Source: Candidatus Thorarchaeota archaeon (lineage in GTDB: Archaea; Asgardarchaeota; Thorarchaeia; Thorarchaeales; Thorarchaeaceae). From it: a stretch of 26,103 nt of DNA. This document shows positions 1,693-13,449 of this stretch, piece after piece. The notes beneath the pieces were generated by a model. That model did no database searches. It had not been told where the DNA came from and saw nothing but the letters and a program-made list of their open reading frames with translations. A program made the translations under genes and the position numbers. Numbering within the stretch: the stretch's first letter is position 1; each line of letters begins with the position of its first letter. The DNA lies in the NCBI GenBank assembly GCA_048884785.1, contig JBHLQM010000051.1, forward strand, positions 1-26,103, read 5' to 3'.

Positions 1693-3396
1693 ATGCCTAA
1701 TCCAATGAATCCTCTCATAGTACAGTCAGACAAATCAGTCCTCCTCGAAGTAGATAATCCGAGATACGAAGAAGCAAGAGACTCTCTTGCAAGATTTGCA
1801 GAGTTGGTTAAGAGTCCAGAATATGTTCACACATACCGCGTAACTCCATTAAGTCTTTGGAATGCAGCGGCTGTAGGTCTGACTGCCAGAGAAGTGATTG
1901 ATTCTTTACAGGAATTTGCCAAATATCCAATTCCAAGCAACATTGAACGTGACATCATGGACTACATGACACGATACGGGCAGATTACATTATTCTCTGA
2001 AGGCGAGGATATGCTCTTGGAGTTTCAAGATGAAGATTTGGCCGAAGAGATATGGCAAAACACCAAAGTAAGAGAGTACATTGTTGAGAGAGTTGACGAG
2101 AATACTTTCCTTGTCGATGCTGGACAGCGAGGATTTCTCAAACATGCGTTATTGGAGCTGGGACATCCTGTAGAGGACTTGGCTGGTTATGTCGAAGGTG
2201 AGCATCTGCCTTTTGAGGTACGAGAGATTGCTTTGAGTGGTGCAAAGTTTGACCTCAGAGACTATCAAAATGAGGCGGTTTCAATCTTCTATGCAGGTGG
2301 CGGCGTTCGCGGCGGGTCAGGTGTAGTGGTGCTTCCTTGTGGAGCTGGAAAAACGATGGTCGGAATTGGCGCAATGCAGAAACTGCAAACCTCCACAATC
2401 ATACTATGCCCCAATGTAGTTGCCGTGCGACAATGGATTCAGGAACTTCTAGATAAAACAACATTAACTGCGGATCAGATTGGAGAGTATACTGGTGATG
2501 AGAAGGAAATAAGACCTATCACTGTAGCAACATATCAAATCCTTACTTGGAGAAGATCAAGAGAGAATGACTTTGAACACTTCCGCATTTTTGACGCTCG
2601 AAAATGGGGTTTAATTATCTATGACGAAGTGCATCTTCTACCTGCACCCGTATTCAGGGTGACTGCCAGTATACAAGCAACCAGGAGACTTGGTCTAACT
2701 GCAACTCTTGTGAGAGAAGATGAACGAGAAGAGGATGTATTCAGTCTAATTGGTCCAAAAAGATTCGATATGCCATGGAAATTACTTGAGGATCAGGGCT
2801 GGATAGCAACAGCTGTCTGTTATGAGATCAGAATTGACCTTCCTGATAATATGCGAAGGAAATATGCATTGGCTGAAGACAGAAAGAAATACAGAATCGC
2901 CGCTGAGAATCCAATCAAACTTGAGCTCATCAAGGAACTCGTTGACTACCATAGGGAGGATAATGTGCTAGTTATTGGGATGTACCTTGACCAGCTCAAA
3001 GAAATCGCTGACACCATAAAATCCCCACTAATAACCGGGAAGACCAGCAATGAGGATAGGCAGGAGCTGTATCAAGCATTTCGCGAAGGAAGACAGAAAA
3101 TCCTAGTTGTTTCCAAAGTGGCCAATTTTGCCCTTGACCTACCAGATGCCAATGTTGCCATCCAAGTTTCAGGGACATTTGGTTCAAGGCAAGAAGAGGC
3201 ACAGCGACTGGGAAGAATCCTCCGACCAAAAGTTGATGGTAGTTTTGCTAGGTTTTACTCCATAGTTACACGGGATTCTCGAGATATGGATTTTGCTGCA
3301 AAACGGCAATTATTCCTCACAGAGCAGGGCTATCAATATGTGATTTCCTCTGCAGACGAGGAGATTTGGAGAAGGAATCCCGAGAGCTTCTTTTAG
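1693..3396 (+). CDS. xpb: XPB/Rad25/Ssl2-type SF2 DNA helicase/translocase with N-terminal Helicase_C_3 (clutch) domain
   Basis: Motif I LPCGAGKT, motif II DEVH, motif III plus RED loop GLTATLVRED, motif VI QEEAQRLGRILR; N-terminus LIVQSDKSVLLE...FAELVKSPEYVHTYRVTPLSLWNA is the long (bacterial/eukaryote-like) XPB N-terminal domain. Confidence 0.95.
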   Translation: MPNPMNPLIVQSDKSVLLEVDNPRYEEARDSLARFAELVKSPEYVHTYRVTPLSLWNAAAVGLTAREVIDSLQEFAKYPIPSNIERDIMDYMTRYGQITLFSEGEDMLLEFQDEDLAEEIWQNTKVREYIVERVDENTFLVDAGQRGFLKHALLELGHPVEDLAGYVEGEHLPFEVREIALSGAKFDLRDYQNEAVSIFYAGGGVRGGSGVVVLPCGAGKTMVGIGAMQKLQTSTIILCPNVVAVRQWIQELLDKTTLTADQIGEYTGDEKEIRPITVATYQILTWRRSRENDFEHFRIFDARKWGLIIYDEVHLLPAPVFRVTASIQATRRLGLTATLVREDEREEDVFSLIGPKRFDMPWKLLEDQGWIATAVCYEIRIDLPDNMRRKYALAEDRKKYRIAAENPIKLELIKELVDYHREDNVLVIGMYLDQLKEIADTIKSPLITGKTSNEDRQELYQAFREGRQKILVVSKVANFALDLPDANVAIQVSGTFGSRQEEAQRLGRILRPKVDGSFARFYSIVTRDSRDMDFAAKRQLFLTEQGYQYVISSADEEIWRRNPESFF

Positions 3397-3399
3397 CTC

Positions 3400-4227
3400 T
3401 TAGTCTTTTTTGGGATCACCGGCTTCATACAACGAGATTTTTCTGGCGATTTGCTTAATTTCATCGAGGGTCAAGCGTTTGATGCCCTTCTGGTCGACAT
3501 CAAAAGCCACCCACATGGGATTGTGTGAAGCCCCTTTTACTTTTGTAACTCTGAACTGTTTGATTAGTACTCCAGCTCCTTCAAACACCGGTTCGTGTCT
3601 TGTATCGATGATAACATCACTACTGTATGTTATCAGGTCATCATAGGCAGCAAACTGCTGTAACCCTGTATGATAGGTCGCCCAACAAGGAATGGACAAG
3701 TTCTTGCAGAATGTTGCCCGCCACGCTTTAACGGCATTCACCGCTTTGAAAGGATGGGATTGCAGGAATAGCTCGGTGATGCTATCTACAAAGATTCCTC
3801 CTATTTCCTTCTCGCTGCTATCAGAGATTAGTCCTTGAATCGCATCGCTAATCTGATCAGGTTCAGTTGGATCCCTCACCATAACTGTATGGTCGTATTT
3901 CACAGTTTTTCGCAAAATCTGATTTGAAAAGCAGTCAACCAAGTCAATAAGACCTTCTTTCAACAAGTCAGAGCTCCATCCTAAGGAACTGAGATTCTGA
4001 AGAACTGAAACCGGTGTATCTTCAAAGCATACATAGATTACTCTCTTTCCTGATTCCATGGCAGAACGAGCCATTTCGTTTAGAATCAGTGATTTTCCTC
4101 CGCCACCAGGACCACGAATAACACCCAGCGCATTTCGTGGAAATCCATTGGGGACTTCGTTATCAAGAGGCGCAATCCCAGTTTTGTAAAGCTCTCTTCC
4201 TTTTGCAAGAATTTTATCAAAGCTCAA
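3400..4227 (-). CDS. Single-domain RAD55/KaiC-like RecA-superfamily ATPase
   Basis: TGIAPLD N-terminal motif, Walker A GPGGGGKS, YVCFED, Walker B FVDSIT, SSDVII and RVTKVKGASH...FDVDQKGI tail; TTG start. Confidence 0.85.
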   Translation of the reverse strand: MSFDKILAKGRELYKTGIAPLDNEVPNGFPRNALGVIRGPGGGGKSLILNEMARSAMESGKRVIYVCFEDTPVSVLQNLSSLGWSSDLLKEGLIDLVDCFSNQILRKTVKYDHTVMVRDPTEPDQISDAIQGLISDSSEKEIGGIFVDSITELFLQSHPFKAVNAVKAWRATFCKNLSIPCWATYHTGLQQFAAYDDLITYSSDVIIDTRHEPVFEGAGVLIKQFRVTKVKGASHNPMWVAFDVDQKGIKRLTLDEIKQIARKISLYEAGDPKKD

Positions 4228-4423
4228 TTTCAGAACCTATTCAATTTGATTCAGTACTCTCAGAATAATGTATTGCTTGTCAGTAATCATTGTATAGGAG
4301 CATTAATCATATCACCCCTTTTTCAAGATTGTCTGCTGCATGCGGTGAAATCACACCTGTGCCTAGGATGTGTTTTTTTCGGTGACCGAATAGCACCAGT
4401 GGTTTGGGTAGGCTCTATGATAA

Positions 4424-4460
4424 GTTAATTTATATTATATAATATTCTAACATATTATGA
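4424..4460 (+). promoter_or_regulatory. AT-only tract with TATA-like sequences, probable promoter of 4473..4730
   Basis: TTAATTTATATTATATAATATT ending about 27 nt before ATG 4473; contains the 14-bp palindrome ATATTATATAATAT (4432-4445). Confidence 0.45.
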
Positions 4461-4472
4461 CATCGTATTTAG

Positions 4473-4730
4473 ATGGAGCTGGAACATATGGTAGAAAGTG
4501 ACCAACGGGAGGCGTCTAATCATTCAAATCCAATGCTATTAAAGCTGAGATATGCTGCACTGGACAAAGCTTTCAGCGAAATTCGAAACAAACGATTCCG
4601 GCTAGATGAGTCAAAAACCCATGGTTGGATATCGGAAGAAGAATATCAACAAGGGCTCGTTCAACTCATTCTCGAGGGAAATGAGATTAAGAACCAACAG
4701 AGAATCATTGAGGAGCAATTGACATTCTGA
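4473..4730 (+). CDS. Small helical (coiled-coil-like) hypothetical protein
   Basis: 85-aa ORF filling a gap, heptad-like charged helices around GWISEEEY, TATA-like element upstream; start could be the second Met. Confidence 0.6.
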   Translation: MELEHMVESDQREASNHSNPMLLKLRYAALDKAFSEIRNKRFRLDESKTHGWISEEEYQQGLVQLILEGNEIKNQQRIIEEQLTF

Positions 4731-4766
4731 GCCACATTCATATAGCTGCTTCAAAACCATATTCGT

Positions 4767-5051
4767 ATGAAGGGACGAAATATCATCCTAATGCTATCAC
4801 ACCTGTTTCGAAAGCATGGAAAAACACTACAAATTTCTGAGGCAGTATATTGCCTGAGTTTTCAATGGCGATATGGCAGCCCTTCTTATATCCGAAAAAT
4901 CCTAACTCTTGCAAGCGAGAGCAATCTGATATCAATTGAAGATGGAGTAATTCGGGCCGAGTTTCTCTATGATTCTCAAAGATTGCACCCCAATCAAGCA
5001 GATGCTTTGGGGAAAATTAGTTTCAGTAGAGATGTTTCACCTCTCTATTGA
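4767..5051 (+). CDS. DUF2240-like small archaeal winged-helix protein
   Basis: Pattern LF-x-KHGK-x-L-x-xSE-x-V-xx-LS-F-x-W-x-YGSP...A-x-xxNLI-x-IEDG-x-I-x-AEF resembles the DUF2240 N-terminal region (recognised from memory); 3' end overlaps the convergent RFC gene. Confidence 0.6.
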   Translation: MKGRNIILMLSHLFRKHGKTLQISEAVYCLSFQWRYGSPSYIRKILTLASESNLISIEDGVIRAEFLYDSQRLHPNQADALGKISFSRDVSPLY

Positions 5052-6160
5052 GATTCTGCATCCTCAATGTTTCCTATTGATGCAAGAAAAGCCATCAGAT
5101 GGATATGAGGGTTTTTCCCTTGAGTCATTCGGTAGTCTATGTCAGAAGCACGTTCCAATATGTGACTCATCTTCCGAGAATCGAAGGGTCTTCTAATGAT
5201 ATCTTTCTGAATCTGAATCATGATATCATTTGGAGAGTATTGCTCAGAGGCAAGAAGATGTCGAAGTGTATCGCGTGCCTGAATCCAATTCTGGCTGATT
5301 GCCAAGGAAACCATTTTTCTCACACCAGTAGTGAGTGTGGTTTCGGAATGGGCGTATACTACATCTTCATTGACTTCTTGTCCTGTTGCAGCGCAAATTT
5401 GAAGAAGATCGAGCCCCCGGCGTACATCTCCAGCTGCCTCTCTGACAATTGAATCAATTCCAGAGTCATCGAATGCTACATTTTCGATCTCCGCTATACT
5501 CCGAAGATAGGATTGCATTATGTCAGGTTTGATTGCAGTGAATTTTATCACAACACAACGTGAGGCGATAGCGGGATTCCATCCGGCAAGAGACGGCGTG
5601 ATAAGAATGAATCTACAGGAGTGTGAGTAAATCTCCATTGTTCTTCTTAATGCTTGCAGCATATTGTTGTCAAGTGCATCGGCTTCATCAAGAACAAGTA
5701 TCTTAACATATTTGTCAGCAACGGTCACCGTTGACGCAAATAGGCTAATAGCTTGAAAAAGCAGTTGACTCCTATTTGGATCTCTTGAGCGGCCCTTTGA
5801 ACTCAATTCTGCTTTGGCCTCACGGAATACAACAGACATATACTCATCAAGCTCAGTTCTTTTTGACCGATCCATTTTTGCCAGATCGCTGATATTTCGC
5901 TTTGCTGAGGCAATGGGATATGACCGAATATCACGCACATTGAGAGACTTGAAGTTTGAATCATAGAAGTCTCCAAGTACACTCTTTGCGAATATATCTG
6001 CAGCAACGGTTTTGCCGGTTCCAGACGGACCGTGTAATATGAGATGAGGAACTGTTCGGGATGCCGCGTATTTTTCAAGCTGAGATTTTGCCTGCTCTTG
6101 CCCTTGGAAATCTGTCCAGGTTTTTGGACGGTATTTGACACTCCAAAGAACAGGCTCCAT
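5045..6160 (-). CDS. rfcS: Replication factor C small-subunit-like clamp-loader AAA+ ATPase (atypical, with insertion)
   Basis: LWSVKYRP (RFC box II), PHLILHGPSGTGKT Walker A, LVLDEAD Walker B, QALRRTME, ASRC arginine finger, GDVRRG sensor 2, C-terminal collar; ATG 6160 preceded by GGTG. Confidence 0.88.
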   Translation of the reverse strand: MEPVLWSVKYRPKTWTDFQGQEQAKSQLEKYAASRTVPHLILHGPSGTGKTVAADIFAKSVLGDFYDSNFKSLNVRDIRSYPIASAKRNISDLAKMDRSKRTELDEYMSVVFREAKAELSSKGRSRDPNRSQLLFQAISLFASTVTVADKYVKILVLDEADALDNNMLQALRRTMEIYSHSCRFILITPSLAGWNPAIASRCVVIKFTAIKPDIMQSYLRSIAEIENVAFDDSGIDSIVREAAGDVRRGLDLLQICAATGQEVNEDVVYAHSETTLTTGVRKMVSLAISQNWIQARDTLRHLLASEQYSPNDIMIQIQKDIIRRPFDSRKMSHILERASDIDYRMTQGKNPHIHLMAFLASIGNIEDAESQ

Positions 6161-6304
6161 TATACACACCGAATGTGTGTTCTCTTAATCCAAAATAAGG
6201 TTGACTCTAAACAGCATTATGAAATCAGACCGAAACCGTAATAGTCATATGGCTTCGAAAGCTCGGCGCTTGTTTACAATTTCAAAATTTGATGAGGATT
6301 TAAT

Positions 6305-8017
6305 ATGTCAAAGGAAACTCTCGATAAAGAATTGGACCATATTTTTAGAGAGGACCTTATAGTTGCATGCCAATACTGGGATATTGATGTCAGCGGGAGT
6401 ACTTCAGGTACACAATTGACTCAGCTTCTTTCGAAAAAAATGAAAATCAAAGAAGAGAGAGATCGAATCTTTGCAGCATTTACTGAAGCAGAAGCGGACC
6501 TTCTTGGACTGCTCACTCTTAGTGGTGGTGCAATGAGTTACGATAGACTGAAACCATTTAGAAAGATTTACAGCTATGGCCAACTGAATCAAACTGAAAG
6601 AGACCTCAGGAAGAAGGGCATCATAGTCAGAAGAATGATGTCAAGATTAACCGAATTCGGACGCGAAGTTGCGGAATTCAAGGTTCTTGATTTTTTTATT
6701 CCTCATCTCAAGAGATTCTTTTCTCAGAAATCTGAAATAGTAGGAGAAAAACCGAAGAAGACTAAGAGTATTATCAATGAGAGAGATACCTTGCTACTTG
6801 ATATGCTTCTCTTGTCATCATATTTGGCGAAACATGAAGTAAAAATGACAAGTTCTTGGGAATTCCCAAAGAGAGAAAGTGACAACATAAAGGATGCAAT
6901 GTCCAAGACAACGGATGAGAGATTCGATTTAGTTCAGAGGACGGCCAGGAAGGCTGCAGTCTATGAGATACTGGACAAGGATAGAGTGATCCCAGGAAAA
7001 ATCCAATCGTTATTTGCAGGAAAACAAGAGGTGGTATCAAAAAGAATTCTTCTCTCAGCAGTTGGAAGGACAAGGGCAATCTGGGCAACGCCAGACCAGC
7101 CAACTGAATATACTCTCAATCTAATCATTTGTAGGTTGCGAGAGAGCTCCTCAGAGGAATGGATTACTGTCAAGGAAATGCGTGACTGGATTAGGAGTGA
7201 GCTTTTCATAGACGAGCAACCTCTAAAATGGATTCAAGTTTCAGAGGAACGAGTCAGTATGGCATTGGAAACTCCCCTTCTACTTGGACTTGTTGAAGGA
7301 GCGTATAAAGGAAAGAATCTACTTGCAATACGCCTGACAGATGTAGGTGAATCTGTAATTGCAGGAAATCCTCTAGCGGAAGTTGAGGGGCAAGAAACAT
7401 TCATTGTACTGCCCAATTTTGAGATAACAGTATTCTCTTCAGAAATGGATTATTTCAAGCTGTATCAATTGATGCTGATATCTGAACCAGTTAGGATTGA
7501 TGTGGTCAGTACTTTCAAAATCACGGAGTCTTCAATCTTTGATGCTATTGAACTGGGCTTCAGAGAGAAAGACCTGATTCAATTTCTTGAGAGCAATAGC
7601 TCAAAGCCCCTCCCTGCAAATGTTATTCGCTCGATAAAAGACTGGACATCGCAGACAACTTTTGCGAACGTTTCGGAAATCTTGCTCTTTGAAACTGATA
7701 ATGAGAAAGACTTGGAAGGACTACTATTGATACCTAAATTCAATGAGTATGTCGTTCGCCGAGTCGGACCAACGGCTGTTATAATTCAGGGTGATTTAGA
7801 CCAATTCATTGATGATATGCAGGAACACAAATGCCATTGTACAAAAATTGGGTTGAAGGTAGAAGAAGGAGAGCCATCGGTTGTAACAACGGTTGCCGAG
7901 CAAGTTCTCCTCTATGGAGATCACCCAGCTTCTGATGTTGCAGATGACTGCCTGGGTTGCCCTGCAATTCAGTCCTGCAATAGGGTTGTAAGAAGAAAAT
8001 CAGAGTCTGCGAGGTGA
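6305..8017 (+). CDS. Helicase-associated (Helicase_C_3 / clutch) domain protein with a p52/Tfb2-like architecture and a C-terminal Cys cluster
   Basis: No Walker motifs. Segment FIVLPNFEITVF...FKITESSIFDAIELG...LIQFLESNSSKPLPANVIRSIKDW (about 7394-7648) aligns by eye with the XPB N-terminal domain in this window; winged-helix-like segments upstream; CLGCPAIQSC at the C-terminus. Confidence 0.75.
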   Translation: MSKETLDKELDHIFREDLIVACQYWDIDVSGSTSGTQLTQLLSKKMKIKEERDRIFAAFTEAEADLLGLLTLSGGAMSYDRLKPFRKIYSYGQLNQTERDLRKKGIIVRRMMSRLTEFGREVAEFKVLDFFIPHLKRFFSQKSEIVGEKPKKTKSIINERDTLLLDMLLLSSYLAKHEVKMTSSWEFPKRESDNIKDAMSKTTDERFDLVQRTARKAAVYEILDKDRVIPGKIQSLFAGKQEVVSKRILLSAVGRTRAIWATPDQPTEYTLNLIICRLRESSSEEWITVKEMRDWIRSELFIDEQPLKWIQVSEERVSMALETPLLLGLVEGAYKGKNLLAIRLTDVGESVIAGNPLAEVEGQETFIVLPNFEITVFSSEMDYFKLYQLMLISEPVRIDVVSTFKITESSIFDAIELGFREKDLIQFLESNSSKPLPANVIRSIKDWTSQTTFANVSEILLFETDNEKDLEGLLLIPKFNEYVVRRVGPTAVIIQGDLDQFIDDMQEHKCHCTKIGLKVEEGEPSVVTTVAEQVLLYGDHPASDVADDCLGCPAIQSCNRVVRRKSESAR

Positions 8018-9060
8018 AGTCAAAATTGGTGGATTCTATCATTCCTGGTAGAATGGTAGGACACTTTCTTGGTGTTGGCAGTCTTGTTGAAGACATGAGA
8101 AATGAAGCACTAGAATATATCACTAGGCTAGAGCTGCCCTATGCATACCAGACTCCAAGCAAACATGAAGAAGATATGATCCGTCAATTTGGATCTTTGC
8201 TACATAGCTTTGAAGACAAAGGCACATTCATCTATGAAATCAATCATGATGATTTTTCTGAAATGATAGATAATGATACGCCACTTTTGCCGGATGAAAG
8301 GCACTTCCACTCACTCTATTCTATTATTGAAAAAGGTCCCTTTAATTGCCTCAAAACCCAGGTCACGGCTCCTGCCACAATGGGCTATAGTATCCGCGAC
8401 TCAAAAGGAAATCAGTATCTCACTCCACAAATGTTTCACTTCTTCTTGGCCTTAGCCAAGAGGATATCAACAGGATATATGCAGCACTTTGCAGGAGTGG
8501 TAAAGAACCTCTTCATCTGTCTTGATGACCCTGCCTTGGGCTTTGTCGTAGATCTAATTGAAACAGGAAAGGCACCTGGTCTAACTCCCACTCACGTGAT
8601 GAGTGCCACGGACAATATTATCCCTAAAGCAGTAACACCAATCTATCACTACTGCTATGATTGGAGGACTCTAAACAGCAATGGCAGACACTTGCTCTGG
8701 GAAAGCCGGCCAAAAATCCTTCATCTAGATATGATATCCTATCCTCCTAGAATTGACAATGAACAGGCAGAATTAGCAAACAAGTTCCTTGCAACTGGAG
8801 GAGGGATCGCATTAGGTATATTGCCAAACACCGATAGCGCATATAGTGATAGTGTGAAAGACACAATTGAAATTAATGGAGAAAAAACTCTCAGCCTGTT
8901 GCAGAGCTCGGGAGTTGACATGGAATTGCTCGAAGGACAGTTTATGGTGTCTACTCAATGTGGACTTTCTGGTGCAAGTTCACAGCTTTCAAAGCAAATC
9001 CATGAAAATGATTCGATATTCACTGAAATCATGATAAAGGAATTCAGAAAATTCCATTGA
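8014..9060 (+). CDS. Core (single-barrel) cobalamin-independent methionine synthase-like / MetE catalytic-domain protein
   Basis: GVGSL, KTQVTAPATMG, LDDPAL, Zn-ligand HYC, LGILP and STQCGL motifs in MetE-core order; start is GTG 8014 (GTGA overlap with the upstream stop) or TTG 8026 with GAGGTG as SD. Confidence 0.7.
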   Translation: MKSKLVDSIIPGRMVGHFLGVGSLVEDMRNEALEYITRLELPYAYQTPSKHEEDMIRQFGSLLHSFEDKGTFIYEINHDDFSEMIDNDTPLLPDERHFHSLYSIIEKGPFNCLKTQVTAPATMGYSIRDSKGNQYLTPQMFHFFLALAKRISTGYMQHFAGVVKNLFICLDDPALGFVVDLIETGKAPGLTPTHVMSATDNIIPKAVTPIYHYCYDWRTLNSNGRHLLWESRPKILHLDMISYPPRIDNEQAELANKFLATGGGIALGILPNTDSAYSDSVKDTIEINGEKTLSLLQSSGVDMELLEGQFMVSTQCGLSGASSQLSKQIHENDSIFTEIMIKEFRKFH

Positions 9061-12470: not shown

Positions 12471-12962
12471 ATGGTGATGAAAATGTTGAAACAGGGAGAT
12501 AAAGCACCCGTTTTCGAAACCACTACAGAGAGCGGTGGAAAATTCAAACTCAGTGCATTCAAGGGAAAGAAAGTCATGATCTATTTCTACCCGAAAGATG
12601 ATACGCCAGGCTGCACAGCTGAGGCATGCTCTATCAGGGACTCTTGGAAGGTCTTTACAAAGGCAGATATTCCTGTTTTTGGGATATCAGGAGGCAATGC
12701 AAAGAGCCATGAGAAATTCAAGGAAAAGTACCAAATTCCATACCCATTGCTTATGGATGAGGATTTCAAAATAGCAGAGCTCTATGGAGTCTATGTCAAG
12801 AAGAAAATGTATGGCAAAGAGTACATGGGAATTGAGCGTACAACATTTCTGATTGACGATGGAGTAATTAGCGGAATTTTCGGCGGTCCTGAGGGAATAG
12901 ACAAAGTAAATACTGATGAACATGCATCTCAGGTGATCAAATTCTGGGATTTGAAGCTCTAG
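12471..12962 (+). CDS. bcp: BCP/PrxQ peroxiredoxin
   Basis: GDKAP-x-F, YFYPKDDTPGCTAEAC (peroxidatic and resolving Cys, CxxxxC), ERTTFLID; real start may be ATG 12483. Confidence 0.93.
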   Translation: MVMKMLKQGDKAPVFETTTESGGKFKLSAFKGKKVMIYFYPKDDTPGCTAEACSIRDSWKVFTKADIPVFGISGGNAKSHEKFKEKYQIPYPLLMDEDFKIAELYGVYVKKKMYGKEYMGIERTTFLIDDGVISGIFGGPEGIDKVNTDEHASQVIKFWDLKL

Positions 12963-12975
12963 AGGGGGAAACGAA

Positions 12976-13449
12976 TTGCTTTCTATTGGCGACAAAGCAC
13001 CCGACTTCGAAACTGTTGATGAGTCTGGAAATAAATTCAAACTCAGTGACCTTCGCGGCAAGAAGATTGTTCTATACTTCTATCCGAAGGACTTCACGCC
13101 AGGCTGCACTATGGAGGCGTGCTCACTTAGAGACGATTACCAAATCTTTGAAGGCTCTGGTATTCCTATCTTCGGCATCTCAGGAGGTTCGATAGAAAGC
13201 CATCGAAACTTCAAGAGAAAGCACAACCTTCCTTTCTCTATCCTCTTGGACGAGGACCTGCAAATTGCGGAACTCTACAATGCAAAGAGCAAACTAAGTA
13301 TCATTGGTGCCGGCGCAAAGCGAATCACATACTTGATCGATGAGAATGGCAATATCGAAGGCATATTTGGTGGCTCGGAGGGCGTAGATAAAGTGAAGTC
13401 ATCAAAGCATGCATCACAGATAGTCGAGTTCTGGGGACTCAAGCTCTGA
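12976..13449 (+). CDS. bcp: BCP/PrxQ peroxiredoxin, second tandem copy
   Basis: YFYPKDFTPGCTMEAC and KRITYLID; TTG start preceded by GAGGGGG. Confidence 0.93.
   Translation: MLSIGDKAPDFETVDESGNKFKLSDLRGKKIVLYFYPKDFTPGCTMEACSLRDDYQIFEGSGIPIFGISGGSIESHRNFKRKHNLPFSILLDEDLQIAELYNAKSKLSIIGAGAKRITYLIDENGNIEGIFGGSEGVDKVKSSKHASQIVEFWGLKL

Follow-up and report, generated by a model that had tools for sequence, protein, structure and literature searches.

A probable two-protein XPB-p52-like module in a Thorarchaeota archaeon

XPB is a motor that opens DNA, and in eukaryotic TFIIH it is held in place and activated by p52. There, the N-terminal domain of XPB and the homologous clutch domain of p52 form the XPB-p52 heterodimer (PMC6422496). 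In a window of 26,103 nucleotides from a Candidatus Thorarchaeota archaeon (contig JBHLQM010000051.1; the window is the whole stretch of DNA that was analysed), an XPB gene and a nearby gene for a non-helicase protein with the same type of domain raise the question of whether an archaeon encodes such a pair, where the pair belongs and with what it works. Here, we report that the window probably (we put it at roughly 0.75) carries a widespread prokaryotic two-protein XPB module, consisting of a long-type XPB and a non-catalytic, full-length homologue of p52/Tfb2 that is named p52L. The binding of XPB to p52L is what we infer from homology and co-occurrence.

The first gene (P0001; 1693..3396, plus strand) encodes a long-type XPB of 567 aa, an SF2 DNA translocase/helicase. 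It matches the NCBIfam equivalog NF045503 (repair_heli_XPB) at 868.6 bits, over a cut-off of 610; ERCC3_RAD25_C (166 bits) and ResIII were matched as well in the profile search, and the Walker A (GAGKT), DEVH and RED motifs can be read in the translation. The first-pass annotation had proposed that this XPB begins with a clutch-type domain, and indeed the Pfam Helicase_C_3 domain covers aa 8-134 (1714..2094, plus strand; 122.9 bits). The segments that it had quoted from XPB and from the partner are real and can be aligned to the N-terminal domains of human and yeast XPB; in P0001, aa 6-130 align to human XPB 74-199 with no gap (E 1e-11). The threonine corresponding to human T119 is retained (T51), and Ser31 takes the place of F99, a residue of human XPB that matters for p52 binding, so the interface between XPB and its partner may differ from that in TFIIH. 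As a whole, P0001 scores 303 bits with yeast Ssl2 and 287 with human XPB, and 134-159 bits with short archaeal XPBs.

The second gene (P0002; 6305..8017, plus strand) encodes the 570-aa p52L. The helicase motor is absent from it, and a second copy of the XPB-type domain is present, as had been suggested: Helicase_C_3 matches aa 388-486 with 41.7 bits (gathering score, 34.2). The Pfam Tfb2 match is faint, i.e., 13.1 bits over the last 75 profile positions, which is below the gathering score of 34.5. When a profile of the partner family was compared with PDB sequences, both XPB (E 1.2e-7) and Tfb2/p52 (E 3.5e-5) were found. The AlphaFold2 model of p52L (pLDDT 83.3, pTM 0.73) was searched with Foldseek, and p52/Tfb2 chains take all of the 18 best PDB ranks (E 6.5e-11 to 1.4e-6), most of them with 470-550 aligned columns, which bears out the anticipated structural match to p52/Tfb2. 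VIA comparison of the model with whole p52 gave Z 13-14.5, the highest value covering 382 residues (model 53-511 against p52 42-461).

Winged-helix units before the clutch and a small alpha/beta domain after it, both expected from the earlier reading, are seen in the AlphaFold2 models. According to model secondary structure, the winged-helix array spans about aa 58-345 (6476..7339, plus strand) and is co-linear with the N-terminal region of p52; single units also resemble MarR/HxlR-type winged helices (Z 8.6-9.6). The clutch domain follows at aa 362-452 (7388..7660, plus strand) and superimposes on human XPB 72-164 and yeast Ssl2 128-221 with Z 16.0, an rmsd of 1.1-1.5 Å over 91-92 residues and 23-24% identity. 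The small C-terminal domain (aa 455-510; 7667..7834, plus strand) has a predicted p8/Tfb5- and Tfb2C-like fold. Modelled alone with AlphaFold2, it reached a pLDDT of 95.3, and Foldseek ranks 1-15 were all p8/Tfb5 or p52/Tfb2, with E 0.03-0.5 and TM 0.47-0.61; an unbiased VIA comparison with 48,161 chains gave Z of at least 5 for only human XPB 172-293 (6.8) and yeast Tfb5 (5.5). A Cys-rich tail, C-x2-C-P-A-x3-C (7940..8014, plus strand), lies in a low-confidence region of the model and is kept across the order Thorarchaeales: C553, C556 and C562 occur without exception in 23 sequences, the 36%-identical f2 form among them, and C510 is usually retained. Taken together, the models support a structural kinship of p52L to p52/Tfb2 over the full length, the winged-helix array, the clutch and the p8-like C-terminal domain following one another as in p52.

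There are just two Helicase_C_3 domains in the whole 3.6-Mb assembly, one in P0001 and one in P0002. The two genes are 2.9 kb apart with opposite-strand genes between them, i.e., they do not form an operon. A co-occurrence of the partner with long-type XPB had been foreseen, and the coupling is strict across the order: Helicase_C_3 is present in 58/59 plus 1/1 genomes of the order (59 of 60), mostly in exactly two copies, and in none of the 191 genomes from other sampled Asgard families. The partner was found in 42 of 43 family genomes and in the single sister-family genome, and in almost every one of these carriers XPB is encoded 4-6 kb from p52L, in the same orientation. The module carries no nuclease. 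A Bax1-like nuclease gene had been noted as lacking beside XPB, and no Bax1/DUF790 gene is found anywhere in this 91%-complete genome; the gene occurs in 3 of 43 family genomes and in most other Asgard families. It appears that in Thorarchaeia the XPB-p52L module stands in for the XPB-Bax1 of most other Asgard archaea. A search limited to p8/Tfb5 and p44/Ssl1 found no gene for either, so the regulation is not identical to that of TFIIH, and XPB-p52L is, within this search, a minimal module.

The pair is not specific to Thorarchaeales. The first-pass annotation had pointed to a bacterial family of long XPB with a Helicase_C_3 protein, and the XPB-p52L pair belongs there: many bacterial phyla, as well as ANME-1-like archaea, have a long XPB gene followed directly by that of a partner, so we regard the pair as an old prokaryotic module. 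In 27 of the 51 bacterial loci with enough flank, the partner gene comes directly after XPB on the same strand, at a distance of <400 bp, and in a Bacillota example the two genes overlap by 4 bp. Of 38 bacterial loci for which both flanks are available, 14 have no partner within about 7 kb, and XPB may therefore function without an adjacent partner gene. In the literature searched, the bacterial partner is not recognised as a p52 homologue. In the XPB tree, Thorarchaeales join Methanophagales/Methanolliviera in an archaeal clade placed in a basal polytomy, and the tree did not show this clade to be strictly nested within a single bacterial phylum; the partner tree is congruent, both trees, which cover prokaryotic sequences, joining Thorarchaeales to ANME-1-like archaea. 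The family is mostly bacterial, and within it the genes of this order and those of Methanophagales/Methanolliviera make up an archaeal clade.

Does p52L need XPB at all? It could act on its own as a DNA-binding regulator of the winged-helix type, having a domain in common with XPB but not binding it, and the MarR/HxlR-type resemblance of several units (Z about 9), the C-terminal WYL ligand-sensor domain of many bacterial relatives, the separate transcription of the two genes in Thorarchaeales and a euryarchaeal relative with no XPB within 8 kb all point in this direction. We nevertheless consider this unlikely: p52L co-occurs with XPB almost perfectly and at fixed spacing in the order, the bacterial genes are operonic, the two trees agree, and it is through the shared domain that XPB and p52 heterodimerise in TFIIH (PMC6422496).

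Just as doubtful, in our estimate, is a larger undescribed repair or DNA-opening machine in which XPB and p52L would be joined by the genes around them. These neighbours are as the earlier annotation described them. A KaiC/RadA-superfamily ATPase (its RAD55-like ATPase; 3400..4227, minus strand; PF06745, 69.6 bits) is convergent with XPB; a 94-aa DUF2240-like protein, o94 (4767..5051, plus strand), matches PF09999 weakly (22.8 bits; cut-off, 22.3); and a divergent second RFC small-subunit paralogue (5045..6169, minus strand; Rep_fac_C, 49.7 bits) is transcribed divergently from p52L and reaches 229.8 bits with PRK12402 (RFC small subunit 2), under the cut-off. DUF2240 resembles the N-terminal tri-helical bundle of Rpa1, a protein-interaction domain (PMC10122647), which would suit such a machine. 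So would the order XPB, o94, divergent RFC variant, p52L, which is kept order-wide, even where the partner is 36% identical, with o94 retained in 5 of the 6 loci compared. Five better-assembled genomes have a canonical RFC-S of ~320 aa elsewhere and a 372-391-aa form beside p52L, this lineage-specific paralogue adjoining p52L in every genome checked, and full-length orthologues with at least 32% identity were found only in this order. On the other side, clamp loaders of other archaea are known to include second RFC small subunits (cf. NCBIfam PRK12402). The order of a MetE-like (TIM barrel) gene, peroxiredoxins and malic enzyme is kept equally well, therefore gene order in Thorarchaeales is generally stable; the KaiC-like ATPase is inconsistently kept, being missing from 3 of 6 loci, and RFC, DUF2240 and KaiC do not stand beside the pair in the one bacterial and one ANME-1-like neighbourhood listed. 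The proposed joint repair system comes down to synteny, and that synteny is shared by metabolic genes.

We give still less credence to the idea that this XPB-p52L is the vertical ancestor, or the closest prokaryotic sister, of TFIIH XPB-p52 through the Asgard lineage. An Asgard archaeon with full-length p52 architecture is suggestive, its XPB is about twice as eukaryote-like as short archaeal XPBs, no bacterial phylum robustly encloses the archaeal long-type clade, and an ANME-1-like member of this clade reaches 38.9 bits with Pfam Tfb2, over the gathering score. The special relation to a TFIIH ancestor raised in the earlier annotation is nonetheless unsupported, because the Thorarchaeota XPB is no nearer to eukaryotic XPB than bacterial ones are (yeast/human bits: Poribacteria 312/300, Planctomycetota 306/290, here 303/287) and its partner scores low on Tfb2 (13-17 bits, against 19.6-38.9 for 7 of 8 other prokaryotic partners, one having no match); the lack of Helicase_C_3 in the other Asgard families also counts against it. 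Direct descent of eukaryotic XPB-p52 from this lineage is not supported.

Finally, helicases with WYL-domain partners are common in defence loci and PADLOC gave partial PbeA helicase-core matches for XPB, but a recently acquired anti-phage or mobile-element system is very improbable and the pair is not a defence system: those XPB matches are generic, no PADLOC family matches the partner, nearly all genomes of the order carry the pair, in single copy and at a fixed chromosomal place with housekeeping genes around it, XPB sequences from different domains of life share 59-61% identity, and GC content across the region is unremarkable.

For the two-protein XPB-p52L module, TFIIH offers an analogy of how it may work. 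The p52L clutch would pair through beta-sheet with the homologous N-terminal domain of XPB; the p8-like domain may help to position RecA2 and tune the XPB ATPase/translocase; and the winged-helix array and Cys-rich tail could touch DNA, make other contacts or form a metal site. In repair, the module would likely use ATP to open or remodel duplex DNA.

Among known systems, the archaeal short XPB-Bax1 similarly combines an XPB-family motor with a dedicated partner for presumed DNA opening in repair; however, its partner, a nuclease, attaches to the ThM/HD2 regions (PMC7672443), its XPB has no Helicase_C_3, and Bax1 is common in other Asgard families rather than here. TFIIH XPB-p52-p8 (Ssl2-Tfb2-Tfb5; PDB 6NMI, 7NVV, 8EBS-8EBU, 6TRS, 3DOM) shares the homologous XPB N-terminal domain with its T119-equivalent threonine and, as modelled, the p52 domain order, but differs in having p8/Tfb5 and p44/Ssl1, in the N- and C-terminal extensions of eukaryotic XPB (782 against 567 aa), in Phe instead of Ser at the F99 position and in lacking the extra Cys-rich tail; p52L itself stays below the Pfam Tfb2 cut-off. 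The bacterial counterpart is a long-type XPB, as described in Mycobacterium (PMC3353954), with an adjacent "helicase-associated domain-containing protein" (Helicase_C_3), e.g., in Bacillota, Planctomycetota and Chloroflexota. Whereas the Thorarchaeota genes are spaced apart and p52L has the Cys tail where bacterial and ANME-1 forms commonly have a WYL domain, the bacterial XPBs are 54-64% identical to the one studied here, the partners are co-linear over 522 residues (22% identity, E 2e-20), and the same two protein families are genomically coupled in both.

The window, contig C51 of a Thorarchaeota (Asgard) assembly (3.6 Mb, 91% complete; lineage taken from the source names of its nearest homologues), holds a real and conserved XPB-p52-like pair, i.e., a prokaryotic variant of the XPB-p52 submodule of TFIIH, the two members of which would interact. 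The first gene (1693-3396, + strand) encodes a long-type XPB of 567 aa (P0001) with Helicase_C_3 at aa 8-134 (122.9 bits), ResIII, and ERCC3_RAD25_C; the SF2 core with its RED motif is seen in the translation. P0001 scores 868.6 bits against the NCBIfam model NF045503 ('repair_heli_XPB'; cut-off 610) over model positions 1-547 of 548, which by sequence assigns it to this prokaryotic long-type XPB family. The second gene (6305-8017, + strand) encodes P0002 or p52L, a 570-aa protein without a helicase motor that carries Helicase_C_3 at aa 388-486 (41.7 bits; gathering score 34.2). The genome contains no Helicase_C_3 domains other than those of P0001 and P0002. A long XPB accompanied by a non-helicase protein with a second such domain had been proposed in the first-pass annotation, and Pfam, NCBIfam, and the ORF coordinates all agree with it. 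The absence of a Bax1-like nuclease at XPB, also proposed there, extends further: DUF790 (Bax1) has no match in the whole genome, as assembled to 91% completeness. The pair is not the archaeal XPB-Bax1 system, in which a short XPB without Helicase_C_3 adjoins Bax1, since the XPB is long and DUF790 is absent. The same 91% complete genome gave no match to p8/Tfb5 (PF06331) at E <= 1, although a very divergent small protein could escape this search, and no match to Ssl1/p44 (PF04056), the subunit searched among p34/p44/p62; two XPD-like genes are located on contigs other than that of the window.

At the level of Pfam, P0002 reaches only 13.1 bits against Tfb2 (PF03849), under the gathering score of 34.5, with a faint match on the last part of the profile. 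The p52L structure was modeled using AlphaFold2 with a 53-sequence alignment (pLDDT 83.3, pTM 0.73). When this model was searched against the PDB with Foldseek, the 18 best matches were all p52/GTF2H4/Tfb2 chains of TFIIH (E 6.5e-11 to 1.4e-6), mostly over 470-550 alignment columns, and XPB chains came next, which bears out the likeness to Tfb2/p52 suspected earlier. VIA-align superposed residues 53-511 of the model on residues 42-461 of human p52 (Z 14.5, 382 residues), and the XPB-proximal part of p52 (7NVV) gave Z 13.9 with an rmsd of 7.7 Å over 262 residues. In both Foldseek and VIA-align comparisons of the model, the domain order, i.e., winged-helix array, clutch, and small C-terminal domain, is co-linear with that of p52. 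The clutch (aa 362-452), the domain homologous to the XPB N-terminal domain, fits human XPB 72-164 and yeast XPB 128-221 with Z 16 and an rmsd of 1.1-1.5 Å (91-92 residues, 23-24% identity). The C-terminal domain was also modeled alone (63 aa, pLDDT 95.3); its Foldseek ranks 1-15 are all p8/TTDA/Tfb5 or p52/Tfb2 chains, with scores (E 0.03-0.5, TM 0.47-0.61) that are modest owing to its short length. A search of 48,161 chains independent of Foldseek returned Z >= 5 only for human XPB 172-293 (6.8) and yeast Tfb5 (5.5), and the model thus points to the p8/Tfb5-pairing fold. Sequence profiles agree: the p52L family profile matches XPB (E 1.2e-7) and Tfb2/p52 (E 3.5e-5 to 6.7e-5) among PDB sequences, and the match to p52 reaches into the winged helix preceding the clutch. 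Based on the structural matches of the whole protein, the clutch, and the C-terminal domain together with these profile matches, the modeled architecture of p52L is that of p52, although P0002 falls under the Pfam Tfb2 cut-off.

The pair is not specific to Thorarchaeota. Exhaustive searching with HMMER brought up 1219 representative relatives of the partner at E < 1e-3, and 80 genome loci gathered with the XPB alignment as query showed that long XPBs 54-64% identical to that of the window occur in >15 bacterial phyla, in Methanolliviera, and in Methanophagales. Most of the partner relatives are 650-900 aa long and match in the last winged helix and clutch region; many end in a WYL domain, which is absent from P0002. 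Their source name is 'helicase-associated domain-containing protein', and P0002 is a member of this prokaryotic Helicase_C_3 family of XPB partners; some relatives carry precomputed Pfam Tfb2 matches, while the databases name the protein generically. Of the 51 bacterial loci in which the sequence after XPB is long enough, 27 have the partner within 400 bp downstream of XPB on the same strand. In a Bacillota genome there is a 4-bp overlap between the partner and the XPB stop, and genes for a UvrD-family helicase and a DNA ligase adjoin. A Bacillota member of the partner family aligns with P0002 (522 residues, 22% identity, E 2e-20). In a control search, Corynebacterium glutamicum also proved to have a Helicase_C_3 gene. 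Compared with the Bacillota or the ANME-1-like genome, the Thorarchaeota XPB is 59-61% identical and the partner 22-24%, co-linear over ~500 residues; the evolutionary rates of XPB and partner differ strongly. Two or more partner-like ORFs adjoin XPB at six loci (L035, L042, L077, L078, L081, and L088): at the five Chloroflexota loci they are in tandem downstream of XPB, and at L081 (Verrucomicrobiota) XPB is flanked by one on either side. The ANME-1 (Methanospirareceae-like) partners, at 2798-4522 of locus L024 and P0296-P0303, combine Tfb2 with Helicase_C_3, often with WYL as well, and at L024 the partner and a long XPB are neighbors in divergent orientation.

Within Asgard archaea, p52L was found in 42 of the 43 sampled genomes of the Thorarchaeota family, as well as in the one genome of its sister family (36% identity), and in nearly all of them it is 4-6 kb from XPB on the same strand. 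When 251 Asgard genomes were scanned with Pfam, Helicase_C_3 appeared in 58/59 + 1/1 genomes of the order, mostly in exactly two copies, and in none of the 191 genomes of other Asgard families. The Bax1 pattern is nearly opposite: three of 43 genomes in the Thorarchaeota family have it, and so do most other Asgard families (e.g., 21/21, 17/19, and 7/7), where it adjoins a short XPB. From these nearly opposite distributions, it looks like XPB-Bax1 was replaced by XPB-p52L in Thorarchaeia; both systems are retained in four sampled genomes of the order. At locus L021 (G155:C3, ~6755-8453) the XPB frame is split near codon 189 into two tblastn pieces in different frames; a frameshift, a pseudogene, or a misassembly could explain this.

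In TFIIH, the p52 clutch pairs through β-sheets with its homologue, the XPB N-terminal domain, as a pseudo-symmetric dimer, and the p52 C-terminal domain together with p8 cradles RecA2 (PMC6422496). Because the same domains are present in the Thorarchaeota pair, the most likely mode of action would be a TFIIH-like pairing of the p52L clutch with the XPB N-terminal domain; homology and gene coupling suggest that p52L binds this domain and may stimulate the XPB ATPase. As no p8 was found, one may speculate that the p52L C-terminal domain acts alone or pairs with the module of similar structure located after the N-terminal domain of XPB. The threonine equivalent to human T119 is kept (T51). The alignment places Ser31 at the position of human F99, which agrees with a 2012 study reporting a lack of F99 conservation among prokaryotes (PMC3353954); details of the interface may for this reason differ from those of TFIIH, and we dropped the F99-equivalent residue as interface evidence. 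A complex prediction of XPB 1-140 with p52L 355-515, both with alignments, gave a score of 0.21 (mark 0.32) and was counted neither way for binding. PADLOC holds no defence family for the partner.

It had also been suggested that the pair is embedded in a larger repair module with a RAD55-like ATPase, a DUF2240-like protein, and a variant RFC. These neighbors are indeed present, and the order kept across the Thorarchaeota order is XPB, (KaiC-like), (85-aa ORF), 94-aa DUF2240-like, RFC-like on the opposite strand, p52L, 348-aa, and 288-aa. The RFC small-subunit-like gene (5045-6169, − strand) contains an insertion and is a second, divergent paralogue: five better-assembled Thorarchaeota genomes have a canonical ~320-aa RFC-S elsewhere and a 372-391-aa form adjoining p52L; in the assembly of the window the variant alone was found, without a canonical RFC-S. 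Clear orthologues of the variant are confined to the order; another Asgard family has a different 350-aa second RFC-S (27-29% identity). The 94-aa stand-alone protein (4767-5051, + strand), kept in five of six Thorarchaeota loci, is a borderline DUF2240 match resembling the N-terminal tri-helical bundle of Rpa1, and DUF2240 is the protein-interaction bundle at the N terminus of archaeal Rpa1 (PMC10122647). The 85-aa ORF (4473-4730) is kept within the genus only. Given an order-specific RFC paralogue, an Rpa1-type interaction bundle, and a kept gene order, a functional link of the pair with the RFC variant and the DUF2240-like protein is conceivable. However, unrelated neighbors are equally kept. 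The 348-aa ORF (8014-9060, + strand), the GTG start of which overlaps the p52L stop by 4 bases, has no Pfam or NCBIfam match and resembles the TIM barrel of cobalamin-independent methionine synthase (MetE C-terminal; protein-atlas feature score 0.93-0.94, TM 0.83-0.84); it is as well conserved as the RFC variant and others, and its place after p52L is kept in the family but not in its sister family. Further along lie genes for a nitroreductase, malic enzyme, and peroxiredoxins; the order is kept for the last two, the peroxiredoxins being two tandem AhpC/TSA paralogues (12471-13449, + strand). Together with these peroxiredoxins, DsbD-like and thioredoxin-like genes upstream (107-1480) give the region a redox-housekeeping flavor. 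Since the order of MetE-like, peroxiredoxin, and malic enzyme genes is kept too, and KaiC is gone from three of the six loci compared, the synteny mirrors a gene order that is stable in general, and no module can be concluded from it. The RFC, DUF2240, and KaiC genes do not adjoin the pair in one Bacillota and one ANME-1-like neighborhood. Comparison across relatives thus upholds the coupling of XPB and p52L and leaves the larger repair module unsupported.

In the XPB tree the Thorarchaeota sequences form a clade (SH-aLRT 97), and its sister is a group of Methanolliviera, Methanophagales, and an ANME-1-like contig (99). The partner tree agrees, with weak support (82-83), and the ANME-1-like partner has its nearest named relative in Methanospirareceae. 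The long-XPB tree was rooted with short Asgard XPBs; at its base the archaeal clade (97), Chloroflexota groups, and all other bacteria then form an unresolved polytomy. With an outgroup branch of ~10 changes per site, transfer may have gone from bacteria to archaea or the reverse. Strict nesting of the archaeal clade inside one bacterial phylum was not found in the XPB trees. As a crude stand-in for a eukaryote-containing tree, six prokaryotic XPBs were scored against the PDB sequences of yeast Ssl2 and human XPB, respectively: Thorarchaeota (window) 303 and 287 bits, ANME-1-like 308 and 292, Poribacteria 312 and 300, Planctomycetota 306 and 290, Chloroflexota 292 and 269, and Bacillota 280 and 279. 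Against Tfb2, the Thorarchaeota partners reach 13-17 bits, seven of eight other prokaryotic partners 19.6-38.9, and one has no match; relatives range from 17 to 39 bits, and P0190, the ANME-1-like partner, is the only one to pass the Pfam cut-off (38.9 bits). The XPB and Tfb2 scores do not indicate a special link between Thorarchaeota and eukaryotes. The earlier reading of the pair as related to the TFIIH ancestor is consequently unsupported: bacterial XPBs score like that of Thorarchaeota, and the Thorarchaeota partner scores low on Tfb2. A broader reading would derive the eukaryotic XPB-p52(-p8) module from a prokaryotic XPB-p52L heterodimer, make the clade of Thorarchaeia with Methanophagales/Methanolliviera its closest living relative, and let the Thorarchaeota pair cooperate with the lineage-specific RFC-like ATPase and an Rpa1-AROD-like protein; we regard this combination as very improbable.

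TFIIH is commonly presented as an invention of eukaryotes, and human mutations in the control of the XPB motor by p52 cause XP/CS and TTD. Because Thorarchaeota, many bacteria, and some methane-cycling archaea have XPB coupled to a p52-like partner of full length, the XPB-p52 regulatory pair is older than eukaryotes; this is not evidence that TFIIH passed from Asgard archaea to eukaryotes. The pair offers a minimal two-protein system for p52 control of the XPB motor, and the origin of the TFIIH core becomes testable by phylogeny. We found no description of an Asgard, other archaeal, or bacterial p52 homologue in the literature searched, in which subscription journals are few. A 2012 study states that no p52 homologues were known from bacteria (PMC3353954), and a 2026 review states that archaea use Bax1, without a TFIIH-like assembly (PMC13024598).

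p52L also has a Cys-rich tail, C-x2-C-P-A-x3-C (7940-8014, + strand; aa 546-570), which comes after a disordered linker. C553, C556, and C562 are invariant across the order, a Cys at aa 510 is usually conserved, and the tail could be a Zn or Fe-S site. The p52 of TFIIH has no counterpart of it, and in p52L it takes the place of the WYL domain of the bacterial and ANME-1 relatives.
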